64,000 nucleotides of DNA, taken from a virus. The stretch's first letter is position 1. Each line of letters opens with the position of its first letter. This document shows positions 35,496 through 51,515 of this stretch, piece by piece. The notes beneath the pieces are model-generated. The model saw nothing but the letters and a program-made list of their open reading frames with translations. It searched no databases and had not been told where the DNA came from. Made by a program: the position numbers and the translations under genes. The stretch is taken from the IMG/VR virus record IMGVR_UViG_3300032242_002477, positions 1-64,000 of that record. One strand, 5' to 3'.

Positions 35496-37529
35496 ATGCT
35501 GACTTTCCGTTTAGCTGAGGATTTTGTAGCTAGTTACCAAAATGAGAAAGTTCCTTGGGGCTACCAAGACGCGGCAGGAAACAGCGTGGGCGAGATTACT
35601 TTTCTTCGAACTTACTCAAGAATAAAGCCTGATGGAACCAAAGAAACATGGACAGATGTTTGCGAACGAGTTATCAATGGGATGTACTCTATTCAAAAAG
35701 ACCACTGTAAAAGCCAACGATTACCTTGGAATGACTCTAAAGCGCAGTCTTCAGCTAAAGAAGCTTTTGACCGCATGTTCAAGTTAAAGTGGACACCGCC
35801 AGGTCGTGGACTTTGGGTTATGGGTACACCTATCGTCAATGAACAAAAAAACTCAGCAGCTTTGCAGAACTGCTCGTTCGTATCTACCGCAGAAATGACC
35901 AAATTAAATCCCGCTAAACCATTCGCTTTTCTTATGGAAGCCTCAATGCTCGGAGTGGGCGTTGGCTTTGATGATAAGGGTGCAGATAAGGACTTTACTA
36001 TTTATGAACCTCAACCCGATACCGACTCTATTGTCATCCCAGACACCCGTGAAGGCTGGGTTGAAAGCGCTGCCACCCTCATCAATTCCTACCTTAAGCC
36101 AGATTCGAAGAGCCCTAAATTCGACTACTCACTCATCCGACCAGAAGGAGCTCCGATTGCAACCTTTGGAGGTACCGCTGCGGGGCCTGAGCCGTTAATT
36201 AAGTTGCACAATCATATTCGTAAAATATTTAACGGTCGTGCTGGAGAAAAATTAACCCGAGTAGATATTGCTGATATTGGAAATCTAATTGGAGTTTGCG
36301 TGGTATCTGGAAATGTTCGCCGTAGTGCTGAATTGTTTATGGGTCGCGTAGATGACCAAGATTTTTTAAATCTAAAGAACCCAGATGTATATCCAGAACG
36401 CAACTCTTATAACCCAGAAGCTCCTGGTTGGGCCTGGATGAGCAACAATTCTGTAGCAGTAAATGTAGGAGATGACTTGTCTAATATTATTGACGGCATT
36501 GCTCGCAACGGTGAGCCTGGGGTAATCTGGATGGATGTCACCCGTAAATATGGTCGTTTAATTGACCCTGAAAATAATAAAGATTGGCGAGCTTCAGGCT
36601 ACAACCCGTGTGCCGAGCAATCTTTGGAGTCTTTTGAATGTTGTACTTTGGTAGAGACCTATGTTAACCGACATGATTCTTTAGAAGATTTTAAGCGAAC
36701 ACTTAAGTTTGCTTACCTTTACGCCAAGACTGTTACTTTGCTCCCGACTCATTGGGAGGAAACAAATGCGATTATGCAACGTAACCGTCGTATAGGAACT
36801 TCTATTTCAGGTATCGCTAACTTTGCCGACAGCAAGGGTTTGCCAATGCTGCGCGATTGGATGGATACAGGTTATTCTACTGTTACTTCCTACGATAAAA
36901 TATATTCAGAGTGGCTTGGTATTCGTGAATCTATTAAAATGACCACAGTTAAGCCCTCAGGAACCGTGAGCATCCTAGCTGGTGAATCTCCAGGGGTTCA
37001 CTGGACTGTTGGCGGAAAATATTTTCTACGCGCTATTCGTTTTCGTAATGGCGACCCAATGCTACCTCTCTTTAAACTGGCTCAATACACAGTTGAACCT
37101 GCAAGTGAGGACCCTGAGGGTACTTCTGTGGTGTTCTTTCCAGTTAAATCAGAAGCGGTTCGCTCAGAGAAAGATGTTTCTATCTTTGAAAAGATGGCTC
37201 TCGCGGCTACCGCTCAACGATACTGGTCAGACAATTCAGTATCAGTAACCATTTCTTTTGACCCTGAGACTGAGGCTTCTGCCGTTGGGACTGTGCTTCA
37301 CATGTACGACGGACAACTTAAGACCGTTTCTTTCTTACCTTCAGGAAATGCGGTATATCCGCAAATGCCTTACACTCAAATAGATGAGGAAAAATATAAT
37401 GACTATACAATGAAATTATTTCCTATTGACTTTTCGGGTGTATACGCTGGTATGGCAGCCGACGCTATTGGCGAAAACTACTGCACTACAGACGCTTGCG
37501 AGATTAAGTTGATTAAAGATAATCAATAA
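35496..37529 (+). CDS. nrdJ: Class II (adenosylcobalamin-dependent) ribonucleotide reductase
   Basis: 'RTYSR', 'PPGRGLW', 'NC', 'GNVRRSA', 'NPCAEQ', 'TVKPSGTVS', C-terminal CTTDAC. Confidence 0.93.
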   Translation: MLTFRLAEDFVASYQNEKVPWGYQDAAGNSVGEITFLRTYSRIKPDGTKETWTDVCERVINGMYSIQKDHCKSQRLPWNDSKAQSSAKEAFDRMFKLKWTPPGRGLWVMGTPIVNEQKNSAALQNCSFVSTAEMTKLNPAKPFAFLMEASMLGVGVGFDDKGADKDFTIYEPQPDTDSIVIPDTREGWVESAATLINSYLKPDSKSPKFDYSLIRPEGAPIATFGGTAAGPEPLIKLHNHIRKIFNGRAGEKLTRVDIADIGNLIGVCVVSGNVRRSAELFMGRVDDQDFLNLKNPDVYPERNSYNPEAPGWAWMSNNSVAVNVGDDLSNIIDGIARNGEPGVIWMDVTRKYGRLIDPENNKDWRASGYNPCAEQSLESFECCTLVETYVNRHDSLEDFKRTLKFAYLYAKTVTLLPTHWEETNAIMQRNRRIGTSISGIANFADSKGLPMLRDWMDTGYSTVTSYDKIYSEWLGIRESIKMTTVKPSGTVSILAGESPGVHWTVGGKYFLRAIRFRNGDPMLPLFKLAQYTVEPASEDPEGTSVVFFPVKSEAVRSEKDVSIFEKMALAATAQRYWSDNSVSVTISFDPETEASAVGTVLHMYDGQLKTVSFLPSGNAVYPQMPYTQIDEEKYNDYTMKLFPIDFSGVYAGMAADAIGENYCTTDACEIKLIKDNQ

Positions 37530-37539
37530 GCAAGCAAAT

Positions 37540-37565
37540 AAAAAAGCCCCCGAAAGGGGGCTTTT
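37540..37565. terminator. Bidirectional intrinsic terminator
   Basis: AAAAAAGCCCCC-GAAA-GGGGGCTTTT between convergent genes. Confidence 0.88.
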
Positions 37566-37571
37566 CTATTT

Positions 37572-38227
37572 TTACCACATCCCTAAATATTTCTCTCTTA
37601 AGTTGTCGTGACCTTCGTAGGCTTGGTACTTGGTAGAATATCTCTCTAAATGCACTGAGTTCATATCAGAGTCAAACACTACGGTTTGAAATATTAAAGG
37701 GGGTTCATTAGGTGTCCAGCGGTTATATGAGCTATTGACTGGGGTATGGGTTGGCATATCTACTCCAACCCATTTAGTAATAATTAAATACCCATTTAAA
37801 TCGTGCTTTCTATTAAATATTTTACCGCTGGATAAAGCGCACCACTCTTTTAAATTAATGCTTTCTCCATCTTCATTGAAGAATACATTAGAATCATAAT
37901 CCTTACGAGTAAGGACTATTTTATTTTTAGTCATTAAACTGCCACTTTTACTCTAATAGTTGCTTTAAATGATTGAGGTTTTTCGTTAACAAAGTTATCC
38001 TCAACCCATTTAACAGACTTTTTACCTGTCCAAGAAAGCAAGAAAGCTTTAGCCTCTCTTTTACCTGCCGACGCACTTGTTGTGGCTGAGTAAACTGTTT
38101 TACTTTCCAAAAAATCATTTTCTGCGGTTTGTTCAAGTAGTGCTCCTGTAATCAACCAAGCACCGCCTTTAGTTTGAATTTTGTCAACTGTTAGGTGAAC
38201 TTCTACTTCTTTTTTCTTTATTGCCAT
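37572..38227 (-). CDS. Two hypothetical proteins (37572-37934, 37934-38227)
   Basis: Coupled ORFs. Confidence 0.55.
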
Positions 38228-38652
38228 TATATTTTCTCCTTATATTTTTTTATTTTAGTTGGCCAATAATACGGAATATCATTACTTACCTGGAACTGAG
38301 GGCCGTAATGTTCTGGGTCTTTTCGCAGCAAATTTGATTGGTGGGAGATGTGGAACTCTGCGTCACCTAACCACTGCGGAAAGTTTGTGTTGGCATTATT
38401 TGTGAACTTGGGTAATAGACTATCATTAAAACCTCTATGAATCCACTCACGACAGATGATAAATCCGTATTTATTAAGGGCTGGCTCGAACCCCTGCCAC
38501 ATTAAAACAGCAGGGTGATTTCGCCAGCCTTTAGTATTACCTGCTAACACATTTAATATTTGATACGCCTCTACTCGTTGCTTACCGAGTCGCTTGTTAT
38601 CCAAGCTCTTCGCGGTTTGTTCAAAGTCGGGGTATGGCAAAAAAGTCTGCAC
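38227..38652 (-). CDS. Pyrimidine-dimer DNA glycosylase family (MSMEG_6728-like)
   Basis: 'QTFLPY...LDNKRLGKQRVE...HPAVLMW...SHQSNLLRKDP'. Confidence 0.85.
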   Translation of the reverse strand: MQTFLPYPDFEQTAKSLDNKRLGKQRVEAYQILNVLAGNTKGWRNHPAVLMWQGFEPALNKYGFIICREWIHRGFNDSLLPKFTNNANTNFPQWLGDAEFHISHQSNLLRKDPEHYGPQFQVSNDIPYYWPTKIKKYKEKI

Positions 38653-38807
38653 TATTCCTCCCAATACTTTACGATAGTTTTAATGGTGGTGTGGATATGG
38701 CAATCACACTCATCACCACCCATATTCTCATCAAACTCAAAGTGTCCTAAGTTATCCTCATAAATTACATCTATAAGTTCCTTAATTGTGTAAAGTTTGT
38801 ATCCCAT
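38652..38807 (-). CDS. 51-aa hypothetical protein, absent from ORF track
   Basis: MGYKLYTIKELIDVIYEDN...; abuts neighbours. Confidence 0.55.
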   Translation of the reverse strand: MGYKLYTIKELIDVIYEDNLGHFEFDENMGGDECDCHIHTTIKTIVKYWEE

Positions 38808-38810
38808 AGG

Positions 38811-39065
38811 TTACGCTACTTTTCTTTTAGACACAACTGTCACAGGCGACTCATAGCCTGTGCCGTCGTAAACTCTACCGCCCCACACGCCATAAGTACC
38901 GACGTGACTGTCTGCGTATTTTCGGCAAGCTTCGATTAAGTGGCATTTGTTACAGATACTTATTGCAAGTGCTACCTCCTGCTTACGTCGAAAGTTGTTA
39001 GAAGGAAAGAACACTTCGGAGTCTGTTTGGGCGCATAACTGCGTTCCGTCATACGGATTATTCAT
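38811..39065 (-). CDS. whiB: Second WhiB-family protein
   Basis: CAQTDSEVFFP...CNKC....C...GVWGG. Confidence 0.88.
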   Translation of the reverse strand: MNNPYDGTQLCAQTDSEVFFPSNNFRRKQEVALAISICNKCHLIEACRKYADSHVGTYGVWGGRVYDGTGYESPVTVVSKRKVA

Positions 39066-39191
39066 TAAAGTTCTCCACATATCTATCGCACTCCCGACAA
39101 TCACCTTCGTTAACTCCTGCGATATGAGTCCACTTTCGATTCTTACAAATTAATTCGTTTGGGACATATTCGCCTAATATTAATTCATCTT

Positions 39192-39404
39192 TCATAGTGT
39201 TAATCCTGCCTTTCGTAATGCTGCTCGTATTTTGTATAAAGCTCGTACATCGCTTGGAGTTTGCGATGAAAAATATATAAATCCGTCAGGTCTTATCCAT
39301 TTAATATGACCACCGTTACTTTTTTCCAACCTCCAACCCTCTGATACGGCTACCCGCATAATTTTTTGTAGCTCACGATTGTTCGATATTTTGCGTAATC
39401 GCAC
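39192..39404 (-). CDS. HicA-like mRNA interferase fold
   Basis: 'GWRLEKSNGGHIKWIRPDG...TPSD'. Confidence 0.65.
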   Translation of the reverse strand: MRLRKISNNRELQKIMRVAVSEGWRLEKSNGGHIKWIRPDGFIYFSSQTPSDVRALYKIRAALRKAGLTL

Positions 39405-39521
39405 GTTCTTGCTCCTCCAATTTTTTTATGACTCGTTTGGTTTGGGCATTAGGTACTAATTGCCATAATATTTCTTTTGCCAATTTAATAGTATTAAGTT
39501 GAATATTTTTTTCTGTGTCGT

Positions 39522-41501
39522 TCATCGACGTGCTCCAATCTGTGCCTTAACGATATCGCTGGCAATCTCCACCAAGTGACGAGGTTCAGTAATAACATTA
39601 AAGAACTGGGCATAGTGTCGATACTGCTCAATGGACTCTACTTCATCAAACCCTTCGTAGATGTGACCAATAAACACGGTGCTGGTAATGACTCCCTTGT
39701 CGTTGAGTCGTTTTACTACATCATCGCAAGGTTCAGAATTATCAAATCCACCGTCAGTTATGATGAATAGTAATTTGGTAGAGCGCGAAGTCATATCAAA
39801 TATTTGTTCGGCTTCCGTAAGTGCACCAGTTGGATTTGTAGTTCCGTTTGTGTGAAGTACTGGAACTACATGGGGGTCTGTATCCTCATCAGCACTAAAC
39901 ATTAAACGGCTATTACTATTAAAAGAATATACGGTGGTGTTAGCGTTAAGTGCTTGAAGCCCACGCTTGATAGACCATACCGCATGGGAAGCGTGGAGAA
40001 CACGACCGCTCATTGAACTTGAGCAGTCTACAAGAATTACCGCTTCCATTTCTGTAGAATAATCAGCTTCCTCCCAGCGGTCAAACATACGATACAGGTC
40101 GTTGATACCTGAGTTCATAGTGCGTTGGACATTAAGTCGACCCTGAGGAACTTCGCGTACCCACGACTGCTCGTTATCTAATTCTAAGCGTTCGAGTTCA
40201 CGCGCAAACTCATCTGAAGCGTGACGATAATCCTCCATAACCGAACTTTTAGATGTGTTAGAGCGACCGAGAGTACCGTTGTATTCGTCGTTGAGATACA
40301 CGGACTCACGGAACTGTTGAATTTCTTGGGCAACGTGCGTGTTTGTTTTGAGTTTTTTAATGCGCTCGTTGATTTGGTCAGCTAACTTGTGGTCGGCTTC
40401 TGAGTATTGGTGCTCGTTTTCTATATCATTATTAGTGGTATCAAAATTATTATCATCACCTGAACCGCTATCTGAATTACTACCTGTTAATGATACTTCT
40501 GGAGCATTACCGAACATCTGTTCGGCTTTCTTGGAATCCTGCTCCTGAGCTTTTCCGCTAGTAGCACGACCTTTAGTAAGTGGGTTGTCTTTGCCACCGC
40601 AAGGGCTACTGATTTTAATATTATTACCAGCAGAATTATCGCCCTGTTTATCGCTTATTTCCTGGCCAGGAACTCCGCCACTACCGTTACCTTTTGGCAT
40701 ATCATTACCTGTGCCCACGATATCTGCAAACCGTTTGATGAGTGCTTTGGCTAAGTAATTATTGTCAGGAAAGGTAAGATAAATATATTCGTCGATGATG
40801 TCGGCAACGGATTTGGCGAGTTCCTGTCCATAATTATCTACGAACATTGAAGTAATCCGTTGGCGAATCCCAAAGTCCATATATTTTCTGCCATGAATTA
40901 ATATGAACGAATCAGCACTTTCGGACTCCAACATGACGTATCGCAGTGCGTTAGCTTCAAGAAAGAATCGAACGCTGGGAAAACGAGCCGTCATAAGTAA
41001 CTCGATACGTTGGTCCTCTAATATATTAAAGGCGTTCATAAAGTCGTTTTCAATTACCCACTTAACGAACTCCGACCCACCTCTAGGCGTGTAAAGGCTA
41101 TGGCAGATTTCGTGATAGTTAATTCCGTGAAGGCTAGGAATATCCTCCTCCGATAGCAACTTCACGACTTCACGGTTGAACGAGATATTTTTGCCGTCGT
41201 TCCAAGCCGACACCTGTGTAGGGATTTCGGGCGTTACGATTTGCACCGTAATATCCTCACCAGTAAGGATACGGTCGAACTTGGTATACACTTTTGTAGC
41301 TGATATCAAAGCCGAATCTTTTGAGCGGATAAAGCAGTCGATTTCTACTAATAATTGCTCATATTCGTGAATCGTATATACATCATCATTTAGAAGGTTT
41401 TTGACCGTATCAACACCGAACTCCTCGTCAATGATTTCCCAGTTGGCGCGTAAAAATTCGACAGTAATCTCCTTCTGAAGCTTTAAATGAGCGTGTGTCA
41501 T
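39522..41501 (-). CDS. Metallopeptidase-like (HExxH) + VWA domain protein (CobT-like)
   Basis: HEICH, 'NILEDQRIE', MIDAS DCSSSM, 'ITDG'. Confidence 0.8.
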   Translation of the reverse strand: MTHAHLKLQKEITVEFLRANWEIIDEEFGVDTVKNLLNDDVYTIHEYEQLLVEIDCFIRSKDSALISATKVYTKFDRILTGEDITVQIVTPEIPTQVSAWNDGKNISFNREVVKLLSEEDIPSLHGINYHEICHSLYTPRGGSEFVKWVIENDFMNAFNILEDQRIELLMTARFPSVRFFLEANALRYVMLESESADSFILIHGRKYMDFGIRQRITSMFVDNYGQELAKSVADIIDEYIYLTFPDNNYLAKALIKRFADIVGTGNDMPKGNGSGGVPGQEISDKQGDNSAGNNIKISSPCGGKDNPLTKGRATSGKAQEQDSKKAEQMFGNAPEVSLTGSNSDSGSGDDNNFDTTNNDIENEHQYSEADHKLADQINERIKKLKTNTHVAQEIQQFRESVYLNDEYNGTLGRSNTSKSSVMEDYRHASDEFARELERLELDNEQSWVREVPQGRLNVQRTMNSGINDLYRMFDRWEEADYSTEMEAVILVDCSSSMSGRVLHASHAVWSIKRGLQALNANTTVYSFNSNSRLMFSADEDTDPHVVPVLHTNGTTNPTGALTEAEQIFDMTSRSTKLLFIITDGGFDNSEPCDDVVKRLNDKGVITSTVFIGHIYEGFDEVESIEQYRHYAQFFNVITEPRHLVEIASDIVKAQIGARR

Positions 41502-42874
41502 TAGAGGGTACCTCCTACGAATTCCTCAGTGCAAGAGAACCCCTCATCAGGTTGGAAAGTAATGTCGATTTTAATACCGAAGTCGCTGGCAATATTGACC
41601 TTGTAGGTATTCTCGACCGTCATACGGACTGCATTACGCTCCTTGCCTACATTAAAGCCGTTGAGAAAGGAATACATCGCGTAATCCAACCCTAGACGTT
41701 CGACATTTCGTGAGAAAGTAACTAGGTCGCGCGTAGATACTGGCGTGGCTAGTTCGCCCTTGATGTGGCTTTCGCGTAGCGCGTTCGCCATTTCGATGAG
41801 CGACTTTGATTTGACCAAAGCTTTCTCAATCTTAGGGTCGTAATCAAACTCCAACTTATGCGCCCAGCGGTTCTTGAACGCCTCATTTAGTGGTCGGGTT
41901 CCGCGGTACATTGGGTTCATATCAGCGACAATAAGAAGGTTTGGGTGAGCCTTGATAATTTCGCCGTCTTTGCCCATTAGTTGAATCTCACGTCGGTCGT
42001 CGAGGAGTGAGAATATAGCGGTTGTCACGCGCTCAGGGAGGAAGTTAACCTCATTGAGAAGCAATACACCGCCATTTCGGACAATTTGGGTAACTGCACC
42101 GTCTTGCCAAGCATAGTGTCCGTCTGTTGTAGGAATCCATTGACCAATCCACTGTGAAGGCTCTGAGCCGTTGTGACTGGAAATATTATAGTAATTGAGA
42201 TTTCGGGCTGAGGCATAGGCTAAAACGCTCATCGTCTTACCCGAGCCTGTTGGACCGAATACAAGCACGTTCTCAGCGTTAGCCATAGCGGAGTCGTAGA
42301 TATCGAACTCCGAGAGGTTGCCTAGCACTTTACGCTGGACATACTCTGTAGCCCACTTCTTGTCGGGAACTTGGGCAAGAACTACTTCATTGGAGGTCGT
42401 GCTTTGACGGGTATCGGTCTTAGCGGTTGCCTGTGGGGAAATTGGGGCTTGGCTGATTGGTTTAATATCAGTATGCCCACCGTCAATACGATAGGTATTG
42501 ATAGAGGAATCACCAATAAGCAAACGTTTATAGAACAGTTCAACCGCTATGGAATACGGCTCCAAGTCGTCGTGAGTTGGGTGCTCGTATTCAGCCCATT
42601 GGTTGATAATGCGAGAGGCTAGGGGAGTGATAATGCCGTTCTCAACCTGTAAGATATTATTAGCAGTAGTAGGAAAGGCGTACATATAGCAATTCGCTTC
42701 TACCTCAGGGAGCTCCTCTAAGGAAATTTCGCGCCAAGCTGAACCGCGACCACGTTGACCAGTATATTCTCTATGATAGATAGAGATACCATTAGATACA
42801 GGGACTAGAAGGGTCTGATATACCCCTTGACCTTCCCTCTTGCCGATAATGAGAACACTTAGGCTATTTGCCAT
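41501..42874 (-). CDS. MoxR/CbbQ (CobS-like) AAA+ ATPase
   Basis: GPTGSGKT, 'LLNEVN', 'MNP.YRGT..LNEAFKNR', 'STR'. Confidence 0.88.
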   Translation of the reverse strand: MANSLSVLIIGKREGQGVYQTLLVPVSNGISIYHREYTGQRGRGSAWREISLEELPEVEANCYMYAFPTTANNILQVENGIITPLASRIINQWAEYEHPTHDDLEPYSIAVELFYKRLLIGDSSINTYRIDGGHTDIKPISQAPISPQATAKTDTRQSTTSNEVVLAQVPDKKWATEYVQRKVLGNLSEFDIYDSAMANAENVLVFGPTGSGKTMSVLAYASARNLNYYNISSHNGSEPSQWIGQWIPTTDGHYAWQDGAVTQIVRNGGVLLLNEVNFLPERVTTAIFSLLDDRREIQLMGKDGEIIKAHPNLLIVADMNPMYRGTRPLNEAFKNRWAHKLEFDYDPKIEKALVKSKSLIEMANALRESHIKGELATPVSTRDLVTFSRNVERLGLDYAMYSFLNGFNVGKERNAVRMTVENTYKVNIASDFGIKIDITFQPDEGFSCTEEFVGGTL

Positions 42875-42904
42875 TTATAAGCCCCTTTCATTGGGTTATG
42901 GCTG

Positions 42905-42960
42905 ATAATGCCATATATAGCAGACAATACCTACACCCTCTCTCTGTGAAGTAGGTCACA
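42905..42960 (-). promoter_or_regulatory. Cassette promoter 1: CRP box 42945-42960, AGGGTGTAGGT, -10 CATTAT
   Basis: TGTGAagtaggTCACA; drives the AAA/VWA operon. Confidence 0.8.
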
Positions 42961-43211
42961 TCTCTTTGGCTCTCGCTCTCTCGCTCTTGTTCTTTAGCTC
43001 TCTCACTCTCTCTGCTCTCTTATCTCTTATCTCTTTTGTGGCTATCTATTGCCTGTGGTACTTATCACATAACAAGCCTGAGACGGCTTCAAATATCTGG
43101 TGGTGCCCGTGTCGCTTTGTCGACATTGTGGGCAGTAGCCAAAATTGCCTATAAAGCAATAAGCAGATATGTTGATTTGTCGACATTTCATGTCGCATAA
43201 TCGTGCATATC

Positions 43212-43324
43212 AGGCTAGTTCTGCAAAATCAAGCCGACACGCCGAATTAGCAGTGTGAGATTGGTCACAACTCTCTTCACACACTATTCCCAATAGAGAA
43301 TGGGGTGGGTGGGCCAACACAAAC
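43212..43324 (-). promoter_or_regulatory. Variant element 2: CRP box 43254-43269 with GGCGTGTCG in place of AGGGTGTAGGT, plus G3/CAACACAAAC motif
   Basis: TGTGAgattggTCACA; TAGCCT at 43212-43217. Confidence 0.65.
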
Positions 43325-43385
43325 AAGCGGCGAGCACGCCAAGAAGCCCCCACGCACGCGGCGCGGGGGCTTTGGGGCTGAGGGA

Positions 43386-44078
43386 TTACCTCTTCTTGAT
43401 GGAGAACAACACGTCCTTGCCTCCTTTCACGCATATATTGCAGGCGATACAGGCGCCTTTTAAGCTTATTTGCTTACGATTCTCGGGGCACATTGCAGCT
43501 CGGGGTAAAATCGCCTTACCGTCGGCAAATGTCTCTTCTAACATCGCTATTGATATCCCCATATCTTTTAATTCCATCGCCGTTGACAGATTCTCAGTGT
43601 CTGCGGAGAAATATAGGCTTAAATTTGTTAGCTCTAAGCTATGGAGAAATTTCGCGCTATGCGAATTACGCGTGTATACCCAAAATATAATATTAGGATG
43701 AGACTTAATGACATGAGCCCACGCCTCAGTGTAGGTCATGGAGAAAAAATCTCCATCCCAATGGATGCGGAATTTCTTATCGGCAGACCATTTCTCACAT
43801 TCACTCTCAAATGCGATAACCATGCTATTAAGTAGGTTAATCATGGTATCTCTCTTAGCCTCTCTCAATAGGCTATAGTTATACATGAGCACATCTCTCA
43901 CGCTAGGCCTAATTTTTTCTAGTTTGCCTGCGTAACAGATACTTTCACAGATAGAAGTAGCTCCTGGACAGGAATACGCCTTGCCACTAGGCAAGCCGAA
44001 GGAATTACCTATGCGAGCAGACCCGCTAGGCGTGAGGCTATTAGCCACTTTGACATCTTTAGACCTTTTAAGTTCCAT
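43386..44078 (-). CDS. Mycobacteriophage Gp88-like Cys-cluster (radical-SAM-like) protein, leaderless
   Basis: 'SFGLP....CPGAT..C...CYA', 'RIHWDGDF', 'YTR', 'C..CNIC'. Confidence 0.75.
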   Translation of the reverse strand: MELKRSKDVKVANSLTPSGSARIGNSFGLPSGKAYSCPGATSICESICYAGKLEKIRPSVRDVLMYNYSLLREAKRDTMINLLNSMVIAFESECEKWSADKKFRIHWDGDFFSMTYTEAWAHVIKSHPNIIFWVYTRNSHSAKFLHSLELTNLSLYFSADTENLSTAMELKDMGISIAMLEETFADGKAILPRAAMCPENRKQISLKGACIACNICVKGGKDVLFSIKKR

Positions 44079-44084
44079 AGGTAG

Positions 44085-44199
44085 ACCTTATCTCGCTATA
44101 TCTAGCAGACCTACACCCTGATGGTGTGAATTAGGTCACAGTGAACTCTCTTTAATATATATTCCCTAAATGGACATGGGAGGGTGGGCCAACACAAAC
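44085..44199 (-). promoter_or_regulatory. Cassette element 3 (CRP box 44125-44140; -10 TAAGGT)
   Basis: TGTGAattaggTCACA; predicted +1 is the ATG at 44078. Confidence 0.85.
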
Positions 44200-44257
44200 A
44201 AACGCGCCCCGCGAAAAGCGGGGAGCGGGTTTTAAGCCCGCCCCCCAGCCTTTCCGC

Positions 44258-44698
44258 TTAGAGGTACTGTTTCGACCAATCGACAGGTAGAGCAATCTCA
44301 TCTTTGCTAGTCATCTCAAGATAAGAGAGCATATTTGCGCGTTCATTGTAATTACTGTTATTTTCAGGCTTAATCGGCTCACTAGGCTTATTAGGCATAG
44401 TGTCAAACTCAGAGGCGAAAATGCCCTTGATAGTTAGCCGAATATCAACACCTGTACTTTGGCGAGCGTTATTTACCCACTCCCAATCGTCAGACACATT
44501 GGCATAGGTAATCTCATTACTCTTAGCAAGCAAGGAAGACACTTTCTTGACATATAAGGTTATGGACTTTTCATAAGCAATTTTCGCCTTTTCATAAGCC
44601 TTAACCTCTCTCTCATATTCTTTGAGAGTATCAGCCTGTTTTCTTTCAATTTTAGCGATAAGTAGCGTCTTATCAACTACGAGCCTTGTGGTTGCCAT
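44258..44698 (-). CDS. Hypothetical cassette protein
   Basis: Own promoter, SD AAGGGG, terminator-like hairpin. Confidence 0.7.
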   Translation of the reverse strand: MATTRLVVDKTLLIAKIERKQADTLKEYEREVKAYEKAKIAYEKSITLYVKKVSSLLAKSNEITYANVSDDWEWVNNARQSTGVDIRLTIKGIFASEFDTMPNKPSEPIKPENNSNYNERANMLSYLEMTSKDEIALPVDWSKQYL

Positions 44699-44755
44699 AA
44701 GGCGAACCCCCCTTATTTATCTGTAACAGAACCCTGTTGTTCAGTTACATAGCAG

Positions 44756-44879
44756 AACCTATCGCACCAAACTCCTAAGACCTACACCCTCCGCGTGTGA
44801 CATACATCACACTCTAGTTTTATCTCTCTTACTCCATACTCCCTATAATATTAAACGGGGTGGGAGGGCCAACACAAAC
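44756..44879 (-). promoter_or_regulatory. Cassette element 4 (CRP box 44796-44811; -10 TAGGTT)
   Basis: TGTGAcatacaTCACA. Confidence 0.85.
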
Positions 44880-45013
44880 ATATTTTCGCAGCGGGCAATC
44901 TCGCGACAAAGGTCGTCAAGGTCGTCAAGGTCGTCACCTAAAAAAATAGCGGGCTCTGCCTAGAAACAGAACCCGCTATGTAGTCAGGGGGTGACTACCT
45001 CACTAAAACCCCG

Positions 45014-45262
45014 TTAGTCACGCTCCCAATTGTCATAATCAACGGGGTCATATTCTCCCCCAGAACTATAACTCTCAGAACAATCAGGGCATGTCCAATC
45101 TGCCGTCCAATAGACTACCCCATGCTCGTAGACTTCGAGAGTAGGTATTTCTCCCGAAAACCCACATTCGCACTCTAAGTCTTGAACTCCATCAGACTCA
45201 TCATATCCAGAAATAGCGGGCTCATTACCCGATACCCCAGGAGGATAATTACTCAATGACAT
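45014..45262 (-). CDS. Acidic zinc-ribbon cassette protein
   Basis: 'YPPGV', CECG...CPDC. Confidence 0.65.
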   Translation of the reverse strand: MSLSNYPPGVSGNEPAISGYDESDGVQDLECECGFSGEIPTLEVYEHGVVYWTADWTCPDCSESYSSGGEYDPVDYDNWERD

Positions 45263-45536
45263 CTTCAACCTCCAATATAGTGTTAAGGAACTCTTCCAAA
45301 TGGTGTTGCTCAACAATAGCGTTAGCAGGTGCCGTTGCCTCACCCTTGAAAGTGACAGGACTAGGCAATTCAATCTGCCGATAGCTGTCACCCTCTGCCA
45401 CAGCATAGAGAGCCTCAATACATGGTATAACCATGCTTGATGGAATAGGCGGATAAAAATTACCCGTCAAATGAACCTTGACTCCAACTTCCAATGGAAC
45501 TGATACTGATAAGTCTTGTGCGAAATTACGCCCCAT
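45249..45536 (-). CDS. Hypothetical cassette protein
   Basis: SD GAAAGGGGG; 'HL..NFYPP', 'HHL'. Confidence 0.7.
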   Translation of the reverse strand: MGRNFAQDLSVSVPLEVGVKVHLTGNFYPPIPSSMVIPCIEALYAVAEGDSYRQIELPSPVTFKGEATAPANAIVEQHHLEEFLNTILEVEDVIE

Positions 45537-45561
45537 GACTTCCCCCTTTCTAGGTAAGCAA

Positions 45562-45678
45562 AACTTATCACGCCACAATAGGCAGACCTACACCCTCTTG
45601 ATGTGACTTATATCACAACTCTCTCCACCACCTATTCCCTTTAGGGTTAGGAAGGGTGGGTGGGCTTCCAACACAAAC
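45562..45678 (-). promoter_or_regulatory. Cassette element 5 (CRP box 45602-45617; -10 TAAGTT)
   Basis: TGTGActtataTCACA. Confidence 0.85.
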
Positions 45679-45761
45679 ATCCCACGCGTTCAAGCGTGTC
45701 GCGAAACGCGAGAACCCGACCCCCACCAAGCAGGGAGTCGGGTCGCGTTTTTGCTAGGGGG

Positions 45762-46244
45762 CTAGCAAATCTCGAAGCCACCACAAGCTAACAAAAATTC
45801 GGCAAATTCTTGGACATTCTCTACCGAGAACGGATAGTGAGTCTGCCAAGGTCGCTTAGTTTTTTTGCCATCACAGGAATTACAAGGGTCGCGGAAAGTA
45901 ACTTCACCCTCTACATAATCGAACCAACCTTCCTGAACTTGAACAATCCCCACACCTTTACAAAAATCGCAAGGTTCATCCTCAAGGCTATCCAACGACT
46001 CTTGATATTGACGAGCATATTCGGCAGTACGACCCGAAGCAATTTCCGCTAACAAATCCTCAGCGAGAGCAATCGCCCCTTCACTATCGAACCCGTCACC
46101 GCTATTGCTATGACCATCAATCTCTGAACACTCAGGTCGTATCTGCTCACAGTAATCCCAAAGTGGTCGCCACCACCACACATTATTGCGAAAATACTCA
46201 CCCTTAGTAGAAATCGGCGTTTTACCATAGACATCCATACCCAT
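45762..46244 (-). CDS. Cassette protein with DnaJ-type zinc-finger insert
   Basis: 'YFRNNVWWWRPLW'; CDFCKGVG...CNSCDG. Confidence 0.7.
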   Translation of the reverse strand: MGMDVYGKTPISTKGEYFRNNVWWWRPLWDYCEQIRPECSEIDGHSNSGDGFDSEGAIALAEDLLAEIASGRTAEYARQYQESLDSLEDEPCDFCKGVGIVQVQEGWFDYVEGEVTFRDPCNSCDGKKTKRPWQTHYPFSVENVQEFAEFLLACGGFEIC

Positions 46245-46246
46245 AA

Positions 46247-46540
46247 TTATTCACCCATACTCTCTGCTAGTTTTTGACACATCATAAAATCGTTATACTC
46301 ACTCGCCCCTAATTGAGTCGCCACAAGAGAAATAGTTTCAATCAAGGCTGATGCCTCATCTTTCTCCACATTGTGAACCTCAATCAAACGAGATATAGCG
46401 ACAGTTTTTAAGAAACTAAGGAACATTGACAGGTTATTATTCCACCATGCCATATCCTCATTACCAATTTCAAGATTATTTTTCATTAAATCCATTAAAT
46501 CGAACATCCGTTTAATTTTTTCAATATTAGGCTTATCCAT
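46247..46540 (-). CDS. Hypothetical cassette protein
   Basis: SD GAAAGGGGG. Confidence 0.65.
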   Translation of the reverse strand: MDKPNIEKIKRMFDLMDLMKNNLEIGNEDMAWWNNNLSMFLSFLKTVAISRLIEVHNVEKDEASALIETISLVATQLGASEYNDFMMCQKLAESMGE

Positions 46541-46570
46541 AATATTGAACCCCCTTTCTTGGTAGACCAA

Positions 46571-46693
46571 ACATTATCCCACCGACTAGGGCAGACCTAC
46601 ACCCTGCCATTGTGACTTACATCACATTAAACTCTCTTCTTCCCTTTATTCCCTGTATTGGTAACTGGGTGGGTGGGCAGTTCCAACACAAAC
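46571..46693 (-). promoter_or_regulatory. Cassette element 6 (CRP box 46611-46626; -10 TAATGT)
   Basis: TGTGActtacaTCACA. Confidence 0.85.
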
Positions 46694-46785
46694 TTTTCGC
46701 GGGCGGGCTTGCCACGCGTTCGGGCGTGTCGCAATAAAAAAAACCCCCACCTTTCCTAAGGGCAGGGGTTCTTTCCGCTTGGGGG

Positions 46786-47340
46786 CTATTCCTCTAGAGG
46801 AATTATTAAATCAGAATTCTCTAGTATTTTATCAACTACTGTACTATGTAATTCTGTTCTCATCATAGAGAATCCGCTGGCTGGCCAACCTGCTTGATAA
46901 CATCTTGCTAGTAGATTGGTAAGATTAGACGCGTCAGACTTAGTTTCGCCATGACTAAGTGTTAAATACGAATTAGCGAGCGCGGTATCTCCTAATTCAT
47001 ACTTGAACGAGGAAAGTACGGCATAGATAGGAGCCTTATAACCATCAGGAAAGGACATCCCGATAATCTCTAGGAAATCGGCAACATCTGAAACGGAGGA
47101 CTCATTAGGTAATCCGATAACATAATCTCTTATGTCTAGGACTTCACTATTGACTCCCACTAGGAAATCAAGCAATAAATCGTCGGTAATCTCACTCTCT
47201 CGACCTTCACGCCATAATTTATACGCCGTATCAATCGCTAGTTTAGACTTGCCAACTGTGGTGCTATGTGCGGAAACCTTTTCCGCTTGGAGTGATGTAA
47301 TCATCACTTCCCCCAATCTGTCGGGTGTACTGTCCGACAT
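46786..47340 (-). CDS. DUF4192-like protein, leaderless
   Basis: 'IRDY....AP....S..YE.GD..LA...L...LL...AGWP'; ATG within 1 nt of predicted +1. Confidence 0.65.
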   Translation of the reverse strand: MSDSTPDRLGEVMITSLQAEKVSAHSTTVGKSKLAIDTAYKLWREGRESEITDDLLLDFLVGVNSEVLDIRDYVIGLPNESSVSDVADFLEIIGMSFPDGYKAPIYAVLSSFKYELGDTALANSYLTLSHGETKSDASNLTNLLARCYQAGWPASGFSMMRTELHSTVVDKILENSDLIIPLEE

Positions 47341-47345
47341 GGCAA

Positions 47346-47470
47346 ACACTATCTGACCAATACCCTTAGACCTACACCCTGTCTATGTGACTTATGTCAC
47401 ACTCTGTAACTCTCTTCTTCCCATAATTCCCATAATAAAGAGATGGGTGGGAGGGCAGCTCAACACAAAC
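47346..47470 (-). promoter_or_regulatory. Cassette element 7 (CRP box 47386-47401; -10 TAGTGT)
   Basis: TGTGActtatgTCACA. Confidence 0.85.
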
Positions 47471-47520
47471 ATTTTTTGCCCACGCGCTCGGGCGTGTCGC
47501 GGAGCGTGAAAAACGGGGGC

Positions 47521-47888
47521 TTACGCCCCCGCCTTCCTATGATTTTTGCGCGTACACTTACCGCAAGGCTTACCAGTAATTGCCACGAGTAAGTCATTAT
47601 CATCTCCGCATTGTGGGCAGACACTATCTAATAAGTGACGGCTCACGCCGTCACCTCCTTTCGTAGTTGTGCCTCGCACTCTTCGAGGATTGCTAGAGCG
47701 TATTCGCGCCCCTTGATGCCACGACCTGGGTTGATACCTGTTAAACGGGTGAAAGCGTGGAGAGATGATTCTTTCGTGAGTTGTGCTCGTGATGTGTTCC
47801 ATGTGCGGATTTCAAGATTCAACCCTTGCTTAAGGATAAGAACCTGAATCGGTGATATCGAGAATTCTACTAATTGACCTTGTGTCAT
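47521..47888 (-). CDS. Two small cassette genes (47643-47888; 47521-47646 CPQC/CGKC peptide)
   Basis: SDs GAAAGGGGG and GGAGG; GTGA overlap. Confidence 0.6.
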
Positions 47889-47911
47889 TTAGTGCCCCCT
47901 TTCACTATCAA

Positions 47912-48036
47912 ACATTACAGCCCCAACCAGCCAAACCTACACCCTGCCATTGTGATTTATGTCACACGCTTAGACTCTCTTCTTCCCTTTATTCCCTTAT
48001 ATATTGAGCTGGGTGGGTGGGCTGCTCAACACAAAC
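47912..48036 (-). promoter_or_regulatory. Cassette element 8 (CRP box 47951-47966; -10 TAATGT)
   Basis: TGTGAtttatgTCACA. Confidence 0.85.
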
Positions 48037-48103
48037 ATTTACCGCGCGACCGCGGACATGCGAAAGCCCCCACCTTTCGGCAGGGGCTCCGCGTTAGCGG
48101 GGG

Positions 48104-48498
48104 CTAACCTTCTTGACCGCACGCCTTGAGGAAACGGTACGTGTCAAAATTACTGTTGAATTGTCGGCAAGCTCTCGCGACTGCTTGACATGTCGCTAAG
48201 TCTGCCCCGACTGCCTTCAGCTCATCCGCTAAGGCTTGAAAGTGTTTACGGCTCATGCTCTCACCCCCTTAAGATGAGCGTTTAATTCTGCCTTGACTGT
48301 CCGAGCCGTATCGCCCCTCCAGTATGTCAGATTAGACAATGCGTAGAGAACAATAGATGAACCGCTGTCCTCGTAATAATTGTCAGATATTGACGTGAGC
48401 GATTCCATAGCCGAGATGTAAGGCTCAGCGTAAACGTACCAATTCTTATAAGCACACTCAGATTTAACAATCTGAGCTAATTCTGCGAGAGTTCGCAT
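48104..48498 (-). CDS. Two small cassette genes (48253-48498; 48104-48256)
   Basis: 'YALSNL..WRG..A..VK.EL'; 'MSRKHF...N.NFD..RFL.AC'; SDs present. Confidence 0.65.
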
Positions 48499-48539
48499 TC
48501 TTGCCCCCTTTACTAGTTCGGCACTTTGCCGATAAGAGA

Positions 48540-48663
48540 AACCTACCACCCACCACCAGCAAGACCTACACCCTGCCATTGTGACATAAGTCACACGCCT
48601 AAACTCTCTCCTCCTTATTCCCTTTAGGGTTGTGACTGGGTGGGTGGGCAGTCCAACACAAAC
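48540..48663 (-). promoter_or_regulatory. Cassette element 9 (CRP box 48580-48595; -10 TAGGTT)
   Basis: TGTGAcataagTCACA. Confidence 0.85.
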
Positions 48664-48712
48664 AAATAGGGCGAGCCCGCTTTCGCGAGCCCGCCCCTGC
48701 GGAAATTCGGGG

Positions 48713-49042
48713 CTAAACCCCTGCCCCCTCCTCCTCAATTTCCAAGTCCTCGCGTATTAAGTCCGAGAGACAAGAGCAGGAATCTTGCATTTCGAGACAA
48801 TAGCAATCATAGCCAGCGTTGAGATACCTACATTCATCACGGTGAAAAGCTCGCACTACACTATAGCCCTCATCTGTAGGCTTACCGCACACACCACACC
48901 ACTCGACTCTACCTAACTCAAAATTGGCGTGAAACTCGCACAGAACCTCATTATTAAGAGCATACCTTGCTACACCCCCACACTCGCGTGGAAAAAGGTC
49001 AGGACGGACGGAAGTAGAAACATTAAATTGGCAATTTGCCAT
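48713..49042 (-). CDS. Cys-rich cassette protein
   Basis: Own promoter and SD; ten Cys. Confidence 0.6.
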   Translation of the reverse strand: MANCQFNVSTSVRPDLFPRECGGVARYALNNEVLCEFHANFELGRVEWCGVCGKPTDEGYSVVRAFHRDECRYLNAGYDCYCLEMQDSCSCLSDLIREDLEIEEEGAGV

Positions 49043-49086
49043 GAGAAGCCCCCTAAAACGGTGTAGGCGGTGTTGCCTACGGCAAC

Positions 49087-49216
49087 AGTTTATTGCCCCG
49101 ATTACAGAAACCTACACCCTGACCATGTGACATAAGTCACATATACTAGGCATTTCTCTTCAACAACCCCCTTACGAAGTAAGTTAGGAGCTGGGTGGGT
49201 GGGCTCCAACACAAAC
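49087..49216 (-). promoter_or_regulatory. Cassette element 10 (CRP box 49126-49141; -10 TAAACT)
   Basis: TGTGAcataagTCACA. Confidence 0.85.
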
Positions 49217-49293
49217 ATTTCGCCGCGACACGCCCAACCGCGGACATGCGAAAGCCCCCGCCGTGTGGCAGGGGCTCCGCATTTATCCGAGGG

Positions 49294-49698
49294 CTATTCG
49301 GAAACCTCGTGTGAGCACTCGATAACTTCCTCGCTATCCGATACCTTTCCGTCTAGTGAGATAACAGAAAGATTGTCGCTAACCCAATCCTCATCTATTT
49401 CATCGCTGGTAGTAATTGAGAATCGAGCCTTGATTAAGACCTCTACTACATAGTCATAACTCAATATAAGACCAAAGATGCTTGCGATTTCCTGAGTGTG
49501 TTCCTCAAGGTTGTCGCGGTTATCTTTGAGATAAGTTTCGAGCGAATCACGCTGACTATATAGGCGCGATAGTGTCTTAAGATGGTACTGATTAGTACCC
49601 TTGAGATTTTCGATTTCGGATTTTAGTGCGTCATACTCGCTGAGAGTAAGAGTTACTTCCATAGCTACTGCTGGTGTTACTGGTGTATCTGTATCCAT
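49294..49698 (-). CDS. Acidic/coiled-coil cassette protein
   Basis: SD AAGGGGG; own promoter. Confidence 0.65.
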   Translation of the reverse strand: MDTDTPVTPAVAMEVTLTLSEYDALKSEIENLKGTNQYHLKTLSRLYSQRDSLETYLKDNRDNLEEHTQEIASIFGLILSYDYVVEVLIKARFSITTSDEIDEDWVSDNLSVISLDGKVSDSEEVIECSHEVSE

Positions 49699-49745
49699 TG
49701 TATAGCCCCCTTGTTTAGTTATAGTCACACTTTGACTATGCCCTA

Positions 49746-49801
49746 AGGCTACACCACCAACACCCCTCGACCTACACCCTGCTCGTGTGAGCTACCTCAC
49801 A
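49746..49801 (-). promoter_or_regulatory. Cassette element 11 (CRP box 49786-49801; -10 TAGCCT)
   Basis: TGTGAgctaccTCACA. Confidence 0.85.
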
Positions 49802-49820
49802 TTTACCCCCCGACCCTTAA

Positions 49821-49836
49821 TCGAACAGGTGTTCGA
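49821..49836. promoter_or_regulatory. LexA (SOS) box, Gram-positive/actinobacterial type
   Basis: TCGAACaggtGTTCGA matches TCGAAC-N4-GTTCGA. Confidence 0.75.
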
Positions 49837-49876
49837 AAGGGCCACCAGACTTCAGACCCAGGTCATACATAGAAAG

Positions 49877-50359
49877 CTAGGCAGTAGCCGAGTTTTTGAG
49901 CAAATTTGCGCTTTTGCGGATATTGCAGGTTGCGTGGGAGGGCTTTACATTTGAAATAATATTTGGGCCACCTTTGGCTAAAGGAATTACGTGGTCAAGG
50001 TGCAGACCGTACTCCCAGCCTGGTTCACCGCAATTTCGGGTTAATCTCATATCAATTGAGGTATTACAGATATGACACTCCGTACCCCATAGGTCTAACA
50101 CGTCTTTAGTAGAAAAATTAACAGACTTAACTTGTCGTAGTCGTGCTCGTGCTTTTCGGTCTTTTCTTCGGTTCCACTCTGTTTTTTTATGGGGATACCG
50201 CTTGTAATAGTCTTTATCTTGTTGTTTATACTTTTCTGGGTCTTTGGCTATTTGAGCGCGTCTATAAGCAGCTGCTATGGCTTTGCAATCAAGGCACGCT
50301 ATTTCGTTAAGCTTTTTGCAGCGGTAATAGTCCCCTATAGATACCCCATGTTGGTCCAT
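49877..50359 (-). CDS. HNH endonuclease
   Basis: CHIC...'LDHVIPLAKGG.N...NV...H..CN..K'. Confidence 0.88.
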   Translation of the reverse strand: MDQHGVSIGDYYRCKKLNEIACLDCKAIAAAYRRAQIAKDPEKYKQQDKDYYKRYPHKKTEWNRRKDRKARARLRQVKSVNFSTKDVLDLWGTECHICNTSIDMRLTRNCGEPGWEYGLHLDHVIPLAKGGPNIISNVKPSHATCNIRKSANLLKNSATA

Positions 50360-50426
50360 ATGAAAATAATACTACACTTCATAGGCAGTAGCTAAGTTTT
50401 GCGGGTGTTGCAGGTTGTGTTAGTAT

Positions 50427-50621
50427 GTGCGTATGGATAAATTACTGTATACCGCTGTTGAGACTGCAAAGATGTTGAATGTTTCCAGAGCTACAATTTA
50501 CGTGCTTATTCGCGAGGGCAAGTTGAAGCCAGTGCATATCGGGCGTTCTATGCGTGTGCATATTGATGAAATTCGCGGGTTTGTAGATTCGCTTGTTGCT
50601 GATTCTGAGGTGACTGTATGA
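50427..50621 (+). CDS. Excisionase-like HTH protein
   Basis: 'YTAVETAKMLNVSRATIY.LI..GKL....IG...R'. Confidence 0.8.
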   Translation: MRMDKLLYTAVETAKMLNVSRATIYVLIREGKLKPVHIGRSMRVHIDEIRGFVDSLVADSEVTV

Positions 50622-51088
50622 GAGTTATGAGAGAGTTTTCCGACGGGTATATCGGGTTTACTCAAGGCTCTTTTGACGAGTGGGCCGTAGTGGTGAAAGT
50701 TGCGGGCTTTCCAGAATGGCCTAAGGACTCTTGGTACTTCACAAAGCTTGCAGAGTACGCTCAAGAGCTAGGAGAGGTCGTCTACAAGGACTTTGTAACT
50801 TTATACGAAGTCACAACTAAAGAGGCCTCAGAGAGCATTTTTGACCTGATTTCGGGTATTTCATTCAGATATCCTAAGCCAAAGGAAGCAGAGGTAATAT
50901 TCTGTATTCTCTACATGACAATGATTGCAGAAGAGAATAAAGACGGGGCTATCTTGAAAAAACGTATCAAACGCTTAGGAGTACACCAGATACTGGTCGA
51001 GGGTATGGCACCCGAGCTAGCTGCTAACTACTCTCGCGGCAAGAAGTCGGAAGAGCTAGTTATGGAATGTCATTCAAGAGGATTTTAA
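50618..51088 (+). CDS. Hypothetical protein
   Basis: 156-aa ORF coupled to the HTH gene. Confidence 0.65.
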   Translation: MRVMREFSDGYIGFTQGSFDEWAVVVKVAGFPEWPKDSWYFTKLAEYAQELGEVVYKDFVTLYEVTTKEASESIFDLISGISFRYPKPKEAEVIFCILYMTMIAEENKDGAILKKRIKRLGVHQILVEGMAPELAANYSRGKKSEELVMECHSRGF

Positions 51089-51128
51089 CGAAAAAATTGA
51101 AATACCAAATGATGGATAGTAAAGTATC

Positions 51129-51515
51129 CAAGCCATAGAGAAGGAGTTAGAGAGGTGATGTAGGTGGAGATTAAAGAACTTATTGGCATATTTGATGCCT
51201 CTAAAAGGACTTATAGGAACGATTGATGCATTACCGAAGACTTTAGGTCATAATTGATGCGGTGACTTATCAGCGAAAATCGGGTAGCCATGTATTATAC
51301 CTGCCCAACGATTCAAGCCATAGAGAAGGAGTTGAAATGAGAGGGATATGCGATGTTTCAAATTGTTCCATTCCAGATGAATCAAGAAAAATCCATGAAG
51401 ATTTTGAAGTTCTGGACAGAAATGTCTGTTGGGAATGTGGTGAAAGAATCAAAAAAACTGTTGAAAACCACATGGCAAATTTTTTGAATGTCATCCAAGC
51501 CATAGAAAAGGAGTT
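51129..51515 (+). repeat. Three copies of CAAGCCATAGARAAGGAGTT (IQAIEKEL gene end + SD)
   Basis: 51129-51148, 51314-51333, 51496-51515. Confidence 0.9.

Follow-up and report, generated by a model that had tools for sequence, protein, structure and literature searches.

The window analysed here comprises bases 1–64000 of the 74.6-kb IMG/VR virus record IMGVR_UViG_3300032242_002477, whose completeness is estimated at 77%. From 39.5 to 50.4 kb the flanking genes all lie on the minus strand, and this block of early genes contains nine intergenic copies of a composite element of 54–62 nt, here called the module, which is built around the 10-mer CAACACAAAC (plus strand). The 10-mer is found as an exact match at 43315, 44190, 44870, 45669, 46684, 47461, 48027, 48654, and 49207, in agreement with an initial annotation of this DNA. 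Together with two copies on the other strand (34422 and 38383) the window holds 11 matches as compared to 0.31 expected, and no shuffled sequence reached 11. Next to each of the nine copies are found GGGNGGGNGGG and blocks of the types AYTCCC and CTCT. The pattern GGG[AT]GGG[AT]GGG lies 1–6 nt upstream of CAACACAAAC in all nine copies, ATTCCC or ACTCCC is present in eight of the nine (the copy at 49207 has AACCCCC instead), and CTCT(C) in all nine. The three G3 tracts, the CCC/TTCCC block, and the CTCT(C) block of the earlier description are thus present, apart from the deviating copy, and so are the hexamers TATAAT at 44844 and TAGGGT at 45642 and 48625. As the flanking genes are encoded on the minus strand, that description referred to the antisense strand of the element.

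Read in gene sense, the stop codon of the upstream gene is followed by one or several strong GC hairpins, an A-rich linker, the word GTTTGTGTTG and, after 0–6 nt, the C tract CCCNCCCNCCC. After a further 4–24 nt come GGGART, a C-free spacer, and GAGAG, and this tail is followed by a CRP-like box (TGTGA-N6-TCACA), by AGGGTGTAGGTCT, and by the −10-like hexamer of the next unit. The extended consensus of the word is T-GTTTGTGTTG-G, i.e., 10–12 nt. A stem of free sequence (P1) flanks the C tract, with CCCNCCCNCCC as its loop, and a small second hairpin (P2) ends in the GGG of GGGART. The module had correctly been placed between the terminator-like hairpin and the CRP-like box, and it is indeed absent from the two end units (42927–42960 and 49768–49801). 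The nine copies are as follows:

43271–43324, minus strand: module copy 1, the last in the direction of transcription; 10-mer 43315–43324, C tract 43303–43313, GGGAAT 43286–43291; the GAGAG tail ends at 43271 and the CRP-like box (43254–43269) is next, without a AGGGTGTAGGT box
44146–44199, minus strand: module copy 2; 10-mer 44190–44199, C tract 44178–44188, GGGAAT 44161–44166
44823–44879, minus strand: module copy 3; 10-mer 44870–44879, C tract 44858–44868, GGGAGT 44838–44843
45619–45678, minus strand: module copy 4; 10-mer 45669–45678, stem GGAAG/CTTCC around the C tract 45654–45664, hairpin CCCTAAAGGG, GGGAAT 45634–45639
46632–46693, minus strand: module copy 5; 10-mer 46684–46693, stem AACTG/CAGTT around the C tract 46667–46677, GGGAAT 46648–46653
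47410–47470, minus strand: module copy 6; 10-mer 47461–47470, C tract 47445–47455, GGGAAT 47426–47431
47975–48036, minus strand: module copy 7; 10-mer 48027–48036, stem GAGC/GCTC around the C tract 48011–48021, GGGAAT 47991–47996
48604–48663, minus strand: module copy 8; 10-mer 48654–48663, stem GACTG/CAGTC around the C tract 48638–48648, hairpin CCCTAAAGGG, GGGAAT 48617–48622
49155–49216, minus strand: module copy 9, the first in the direction of transcription; 10-mer 49207–49216, stem GGAGC/GCTCC around the C tract 49193–49203, hairpin CTTAC-TTC-GTAAG, GGGGGTT in place of GGGAAT

Two other repeats lie close to these modules. The motif CGCGACACGCC(C)GA-CGCGTGG is found on the minus strand upstream of the 10-mers at 45669, 46684, 47461, and 49207, between the main terminator and the word, and is inverted in one copy; its core GACACGCC is a downstream operator-like box in relatives. 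In addition, three tandem copies of GACGACCTT (~44900–44935, minus strand) are located just upstream of the module copy at 44870.

The element is not a peculiarity of one contig. Throughout a large clade of uncultured ~96-kb phages it is present at each early transcription unit. A search with the pattern of 10-mer and C tract yielded 64 loci on ~45 IMG/VR contigs with 133 distinct copies, and several of the matched contigs are complete, with a length of ~96 kb and terminal repeats. GAGAG did not enter this pattern; the tail is present within 70 nt in 115 of the 133 copies, and nearly all of these 115 also have a GGGART-like block. The operators downstream of the tail differ among the relatives and comprise TGTGA-N6-TCACA, DnaA boxes, CGTTAT palindromes, and CGACACGCC. 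Where the window has CRP-like boxes, the promoter and operator part behind the tail at the relatives' loci L003, L032, L072, L074, and L076 consists of perfect DnaA boxes (TTATCCACA), ATCGTTATCAAATCGTTAT-type palindromes, or CGACACGCCG instead. It seems that the phages borrow the sites of differing host regulators. Thus, the element is conserved across the clade independently of the promoter type and has outlived a complete turnover of the surrounding promoters, operators, and genes. The initial annotation had regarded the module as a separate unit that promoter function does not explain, and had named its loss in relatives with the same promoters as the finding that would speak against it; the opposite is found, with the motif being retained under changing promoters.

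About half of the contigs form a sister group in which the same position, after the terminator and before the promoter, is occupied by an imperfect palindrome of 72–143 nt bounded by GTTTGTGTTGG and CCAACACAAAC. Here the word is paired with its exact complement around a hairpin. In the relative G012 (90/141, 85867/85928, and 87229/87288) the complement, a 40-nt hairpin, and the word follow each other and together make up a long perfect palindrome immediately before DnaA boxes. The variable stem beside the word contains G.U pairs in the sister-group palindromes, and in those without a C tract it folds better on the gene-sense strand in ~9 of the 11 non-tied cases by our own tally, which points to a hairpin of the sense strand, presumably of the RNA. 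The word and its complement differ from this stem: in the closed variants both arms are exact in 22 of 22 cases, and no wobble pair is found among 220 word pairs. Since the arms are exact although the neighboring stem has G.U pairs, the word appears to be read by sequence, on top of any pairing.

The P1 stem was examined in the 56 copies with a linker of at least 3 nt by register-aware pair counts. Fully paired stems are present in 43 of them, with 38 distinct stems; 200 permutations gave 11.8 on average and 24 at most. Thus P1 covaries, and it is seen in five of the nine window copies (GACTG/CAGTC, AACTG/CAGTT, GAGC/GCTC, GGAGC/GCTCC, and GGAAG/CTTCC). The C tract stands directly behind the word in 56 of 58 occurrences in nine genomes, and a hairpin ends within ~10 nt upstream of the word in 106 of the 133 copies. 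The spacings vary, from 4 to 24 nt between the C tract and GGGART and from 14 to 24 nt between GGGART and the end of the GA run. The loops of P2 are UUC or UAC triloops rather than UNCG tetraloops, and P2 folds equally well on both strands, allowing no strand call. An extension of P1 into the last UUG of the word via the following YAA was likewise unconvincing (17 of 38 copies vs. 11 of 38 in the control). RNAalifold predicted no structure from a MAFFT alignment of 38 copies, in which the stems of variable length are misaligned, and a scan of the region 37000–51500 with Rfam 15 left the modules without a match at E values of up to 5. In copies without P1, among them those at 43315, 44190, and 44870, the base after CCCC is the same as the fifth base of GGGANT in all 41 distinct cases (17 A/A, 19 G/G, and 5 T/T; Fisher p ~1e-10 for A against G). 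This coupling is one of identity and not of complementarity, and no pairing model accounts for it.

The 10-mer also occurs outside the modules. In nine lineages, which share at most 3% of their 15-mers, it is found 95 times as compared to a mean of 3.6 for 209 permutations of the same composition and a maximum of 14 for unrelated permutations. No other 10-mer is as frequent in the complete genome G002, where the strand distribution of the word is 12:1, and the other open-type genomes show a similar bias (9:1, 10:1, 10:1, 10:1, 7:1, 9:0, and 9:1), with ~10–13 copies per 96 kb. The modules hold 54 of the 95 copies. All modules with a scorable gene direction are in sense (48 sense, none antisense, 11 unclear). 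The other 41 are single copies without C tract; relative to the genes around them 28 are antisense and 6 in sense, with the rest unclear. By our own recount 32 of these single copies share the DNA strand of the block, including copies behind co-oriented whiB genes. Single copies and modules have the flanks T(−1) and G(+10) in common. In the late arc the single copies are spaced at roughly 4–14 kb; some are located between a late terminator hairpin and a Shine-Dalgarno sequence and others deep within open reading frames. In G002 they are confined to the late structural arc (baseplate, glycosyltransferase, a 1200-aa structural protein, and just behind the major head gene), and the replication arc has none. 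The two single copies of the window are:

38383–38392, plus strand: GTTTGTGTTG without C tract; its strand is opposite to that of the block, and it lies ~4.9 kb further downstream, near the whiB-like gene 38874–39041
34422–34431, plus strand: GTTTGTGTTG within the DpdA-like gene 33804–35342, in sense orientation

Three lineages have the word at a homologous site of the glycosyltransferase gene, where it encodes P-T-Q-T by the same codons in each. Because the neighboring synonymous sites all differ, the word is, judged from these codons, selected as nucleotides. In the ribonucleotide reductase (RNR) gene the 10-mer is present in sense at one homologous position of G002 (13242), G004 (26202), and G023 (26922); the peptide reads G-V-C-V-V-S-G-N-V-R-R, the V-C-V codons are identical in these three diverged lineages, and the RNR gene of the window is devoid of the word.

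We also looked for the word in candidate hosts. In 31 genomes of the Nanopelagicaceae (1–2 Mb) there are 0–7 copies each, similar to the reversed control and with a binned phage contig set aside, i.e., ~2 per Mb as compared to more than 100 per Mb in the phages. As the word is rare in these genomes and frequent in the phages, it is a phage word and not a host word of the Chi or KOPS type, with the assignment of the host being only probable; a host Chi-like word was rejected for the lack of enrichment in candidate hosts. A literature search for the two 10-mers returned only unrelated primers. Thus, the 10-mer is a phage-specific, genome-wide, and strand-biased word.

The gene content of the window gives a hint at the kind of phage and at its host. 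The window encodes baseplate proteins, a DnaB-type helicase, PolA (40% identity to the PolA of Streptomyces phages), a DpdA-like transglycosylase, RNR, and a CobS-like ATPase, and an HNH endonuclease gene stands at the head of the early block. A megablast search for close relatives of the region gave no match among the GenBank phages. Three further genes are of relevance:

22706–22930, plus strand: WhiB-like gene
38874–39041, minus strand: WhiB-like gene
43386–44078, minus strand: GP88-family gene (Pfam PF17338), the last gene of the cassettes

In phages with a 50%-identical homologue of the GP88 gene the 10-mer is absent within ~3–9 kb on either side of it. Two WhiB-like genes are also found in each of four relatives, in a search whose control was positive only in Corynebacterium; as such genes are encoded we infer an actinobacterial host. 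In addition, a 7.3-kb contig with eight copies of the element sits in a metagenome-assembled genome bin of Ca. Nanopelagicaceae. A pattern scan of bacterial genomes gave 27 matches as compared to ~39 expected by chance (own arithmetic), and given this expectation only the multi-copy contig binned with the Nanopelagicaceae is meaningful. From the WhiB-like genes and this contig the host is probably a freshwater actinobacterium of the abundant Nanopelagicales, for which phage–host pairs in culture are known (PMC10202952). A profile search with a positive control found no tyrosine recombinase/integrase (PF00589) in five genomes, and the genome looks lytic. Searches for a phage RNA polymerase (PF00940) and a sigma factor (PF04542) yielded no match; for PF00940 this is a weak negative, as its control remained silent.

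In summary, the element is genuine, its orientation is always that of the early genes, and its stem covaries. We tentatively suggest that it is a polar boundary signal of early transcription units which is read by a putative phage-encoded factor. The word and the adjacent hairpin would form a polar recognition site for a conserved reader, and this reader might handle transcription that leaves one early unit before the next promoter is reached, by stopping, insulating, or re-programming the polymerase. It could resemble a repressor at stoperators, if the site is read on the DNA, or a factor at boxA/boxB nut sites, if it is read on the RNA. The three G tracts of the plus strand are the plain complement of the C-rich loop, and as a side effect the conserved patch of 54–62 nt might provide homology for the shuffling of early-gene cassettes. 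The antitermination or processing site and the protein-binding site, both among the options of the initial annotation, are close to this proposal.

Several observations weigh against a boundary signal of this kind. No reader protein was identified, the repressor family not having been searched, and as the searches yielded neither a canonical sigma factor nor a T7-type polymerase or integrase, there is no pointer to a reader. The excess of antisense single copies in the late region (28 vs. 6 in sense) is not predicted by a plain stoperator model, five to six single copies are in sense within genes, and the word in the RNR gene of three lineages argues against a strong stop signal. A roadblock on the DNA would need neither covarying hairpins nor an invariant C-rich loop, just as an RNA hairpin would not require both arms to be exact. 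Unlike nut sites, the element is placed behind terminators and before promoters, and the word is unrelated to the host-like box of the rrn leaders in four Nanopelagicaceae rrn operons. The element thus fails defining features of stoperators, with respect to the orientation in the late region, and of nut sites, with respect to the position relative to promoter and terminator.

On a more general level it is possible, if doubtful, that freshwater actinophages use short, clade-specific, and genome-polar words as a direction-giving signal which couples early and late transcription or both DNA strands. The word would then be fused to a structured element at every early-unit boundary and have its exact complement in the late messages, and one 12-nt code might be read by a phage factor or by RNA–RNA pairing. 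A word of 10–12 nt that is conserved letter for letter likely has a specific, hitherto undescribed reader. Once found, this reader would explain how the early and late programmes of these phages are separated or timed, and a compact polar control element for actinobacterial genetics is a possible yield.

Other explanations start from the single copies in the late region. As most of these are antisense to late structural genes, the late mRNAs carry the exact complement of the word, and GUUUGUGUUG in the read-through early RNA, single-stranded beside P1, could pair with CAACACAAAC of the late mRNAs. A duplex of 10 bp, or of 12 bp given the common flanks T(−1) and G(+10), stacked on the hairpin would be the functional unit, for example, for cleavage by RNase III or for translational control of late genes. 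The Group II phages, in which the word is paired with its perfect complement around hairpins in the orders M...M′ and M′...M, would have the same pairing in cis, and their closed hairpins without C tract, with G.U pairs and the better fold in gene sense, fit to this proposal. So do several single copies which are located 2–20 nt upstream of a Shine-Dalgarno sequence and immediately after the upstream gene's terminator (the major head gene being this upstream gene in G002). However, the modules are located behind terminators and have no promoter of their own, most late sites lie within open reading frames far from start codons, copies in sense orientation within the RNR and DpdA genes are at odds with the proposal, and the absence of wobble among the word pairs points to reading of the sequence rather than to pairing. 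We therefore consider such an antisense mechanism somewhat unlikely. The word could also be a DNA-strand-specific signal for a one-way machine, i.e., for strand nicking, lagging-strand priming, or the guidance of packaging or ejection; site-specific single-strand nicking is known from T5 or phiKMV-like phages. The 32 of 41 single copies on the strand of the block whatever the local gene direction, their spread at roughly 4–14 kb intervals in the late arc, the exact arms of the closed variants, and the HNH endonuclease gene are in line with this. On the other hand, four to nine copies within 6 kb at the unit boundaries, each with a structured appendix, are unexpected for such a signal, candidate host genomes show no enrichment of the word, and the search for a recombinase was negative (genes for HUH and Rep proteins were not searched for), which renders this explanation unlikely.

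Among the options raised by the initial annotation was a recombination signal for the exchange of cassettes. It would act via a dedicated recombinase or via homologous recombination as with the promoter-early stem-loop (PeSL) cassettes of T4-type phages. The early-gene families differ in order and grouping among lineages with the modules lying between the cassettes, which suggests homologous exchange at the conserved patches, and the close relatives L052 (3067) and L053 (4794) differ only in the part comprising P2 and the spacer inside the module. There is also the precedent of the PeSLs themselves, conserved promoter–terminator cassettes that mediate shuffling (PMC2839356). On the contrary, the five genomes have no tyrosine recombinase, and by a crude test the ends of homology blocks of at least 200 bp are not clearly enriched at the modules, with 8 vs. 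2 ends in one 20-nt bin and depletion otherwise. Homology alone would also leave the invariant 10-mer, the covarying stem, and the single copies in late genes unexplained. A recombination signal is quite improbable, and shuffling is likely a consequence of the conserved patch rather than its selected function. A promoter has even less in its favor, be it a late or antisense promoter reading CAACACAAAC on the plus strand or a second sense promoter starting at GGGART. CAACACAAAC is found shortly upstream of some late genes, and GGGAGT or GGGAAT with the C-free stretch resembles the start sites of phage polymerases. But most late intergenic regions of G002 are without the word, which also led us to reject it as a general late promoter, the distance to the Shine-Dalgarno sequence is only 2 nt in some cases, the spacings within the module vary, and the searches for a phage RNA polymerase or sigma factor were empty, with the reservation made above for the PF00940 control. 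A promoter is thus very unlikely, and we found nothing that favors the divergent antisense RNA start suggested before. GGGAAT was also rejected as the −35 element of an ECF-type promoter, the spacings being too short and too variable, and so was a leader peptide starting from ATG-TTT-GTG-TTG, for which there is no ribosome-binding site, the frame shifts with the stem length, and the ATG is often absent.

A G-quadruplex (G4) on the plus strand, forming during transcription and triggering recombination or regulation in the manner of the pilE G4, is a tempting idea, as the three G3 tracts with 1-nt loops are invariant. Two copies had been credited with four such tracts; the one at 45644–45664 fits the pattern of four G3 tracts with loops of 1–7 nt, but the one at 48627–48648 has an 8-nt loop. 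A fourth tract within 7 nt is therefore present in one of the nine window copies and in 35 of the 133 copies overall, and missing in eight and 98, respectively. The spacer bases of the tracts are free to vary among A, T, and G (as read on the C strand), a covarying Watson–Crick stem, which would compete with a G4, surrounds the tract, and the remaining conserved parts would have no role in it. As the conserved feature is three tracts within a covarying stem, the G4 potential ascribed to the module is not borne out, and a G4 function appears highly improbable. This reading can be removed from the description of the locus.

Comparison with known systems puts the proposed boundary signal into context. 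The stoperators of Cluster A mycobacteriophages are asymmetric 13-mers whose orientation matters and which are found mainly in short intergenic spaces (PMC9283540). The element shares with these sites of the L5 gp71-type repressor a short asymmetric word that is repeated many times in an actinophage genome, far above chance (95 vs. 3.6), with the copies of the early block all co-oriented with transcription. In contrast to stoperators, whose orientation follows local transcription, only the modules do so here (48:0), and the single copies do not (28 antisense to 6 sense). Stoperators are also more frequent, with more than 20 per 50 kb as compared to ~10–13 words per 96 kb, and they lack a covarying hairpin, a conserved C-rich loop, and a purine tail fused to the word. 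Finally, they act with a cognate repressor in temperate phages; in the five genomes here no PF00589 integrase is found, the repressor family not having been searched.

The PeSLs of T4-type phages are promoter-early stem-loop cassettes linked to modular shuffling (PMC2839356), and they are similar in being composite intergenic elements beside small genes of undetermined role in a plastic early region. The combination of a terminator stem–loop and an early promoter is found here in the whole intergenic unit and not in the module alone, with the activities predicted from the sequence. The module is rather an extra element between terminator and promoter that is kept while the promoter type changes. 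PeSLs have no polar word, whereas the 10-mer is here also present alone across the late region. Their recombination junctions lie inside the element; here the ends of homology blocks show no such clear preference in our crude test. Less close are the attC sites of integrons, which the sister-group palindromes resemble in their length, their position at the 3′ end of each cassette, and their conserved pairing ends. The window copies have one arm only, the PF00589 search with its positive control found no IntI-type recombinase, and the cassettes carry their own promoters. A pilE-like G4 requires at least four G3 runs with loops of 1–7 nt, and the element conserves three. Words of the Chi or KOPS type are over-represented in the host chromosome, which is not the case here.

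In lambdoid nut sites (boxA and boxB) an invariant linear word is followed by a hairpin with a covarying stem and a conserved loop, just as in the module. Nut sites are situated downstream of the promoter and ahead of the terminators, occur twice per genome, and have a boxA related to the boxA of the host rrn operons. The element, on the contrary, has four to nine copies which are placed behind terminators and ahead of promoters, and its word is unlike the rrn leaders of the four Nanopelagicaceae operons, so that a host boxA-like word was rejected; to our knowledge there is no N-like protein for it. By analogy, the stoperators on the one hand and the boxA–boxB layout on the other hand appear to be the nearest precedents of this element.

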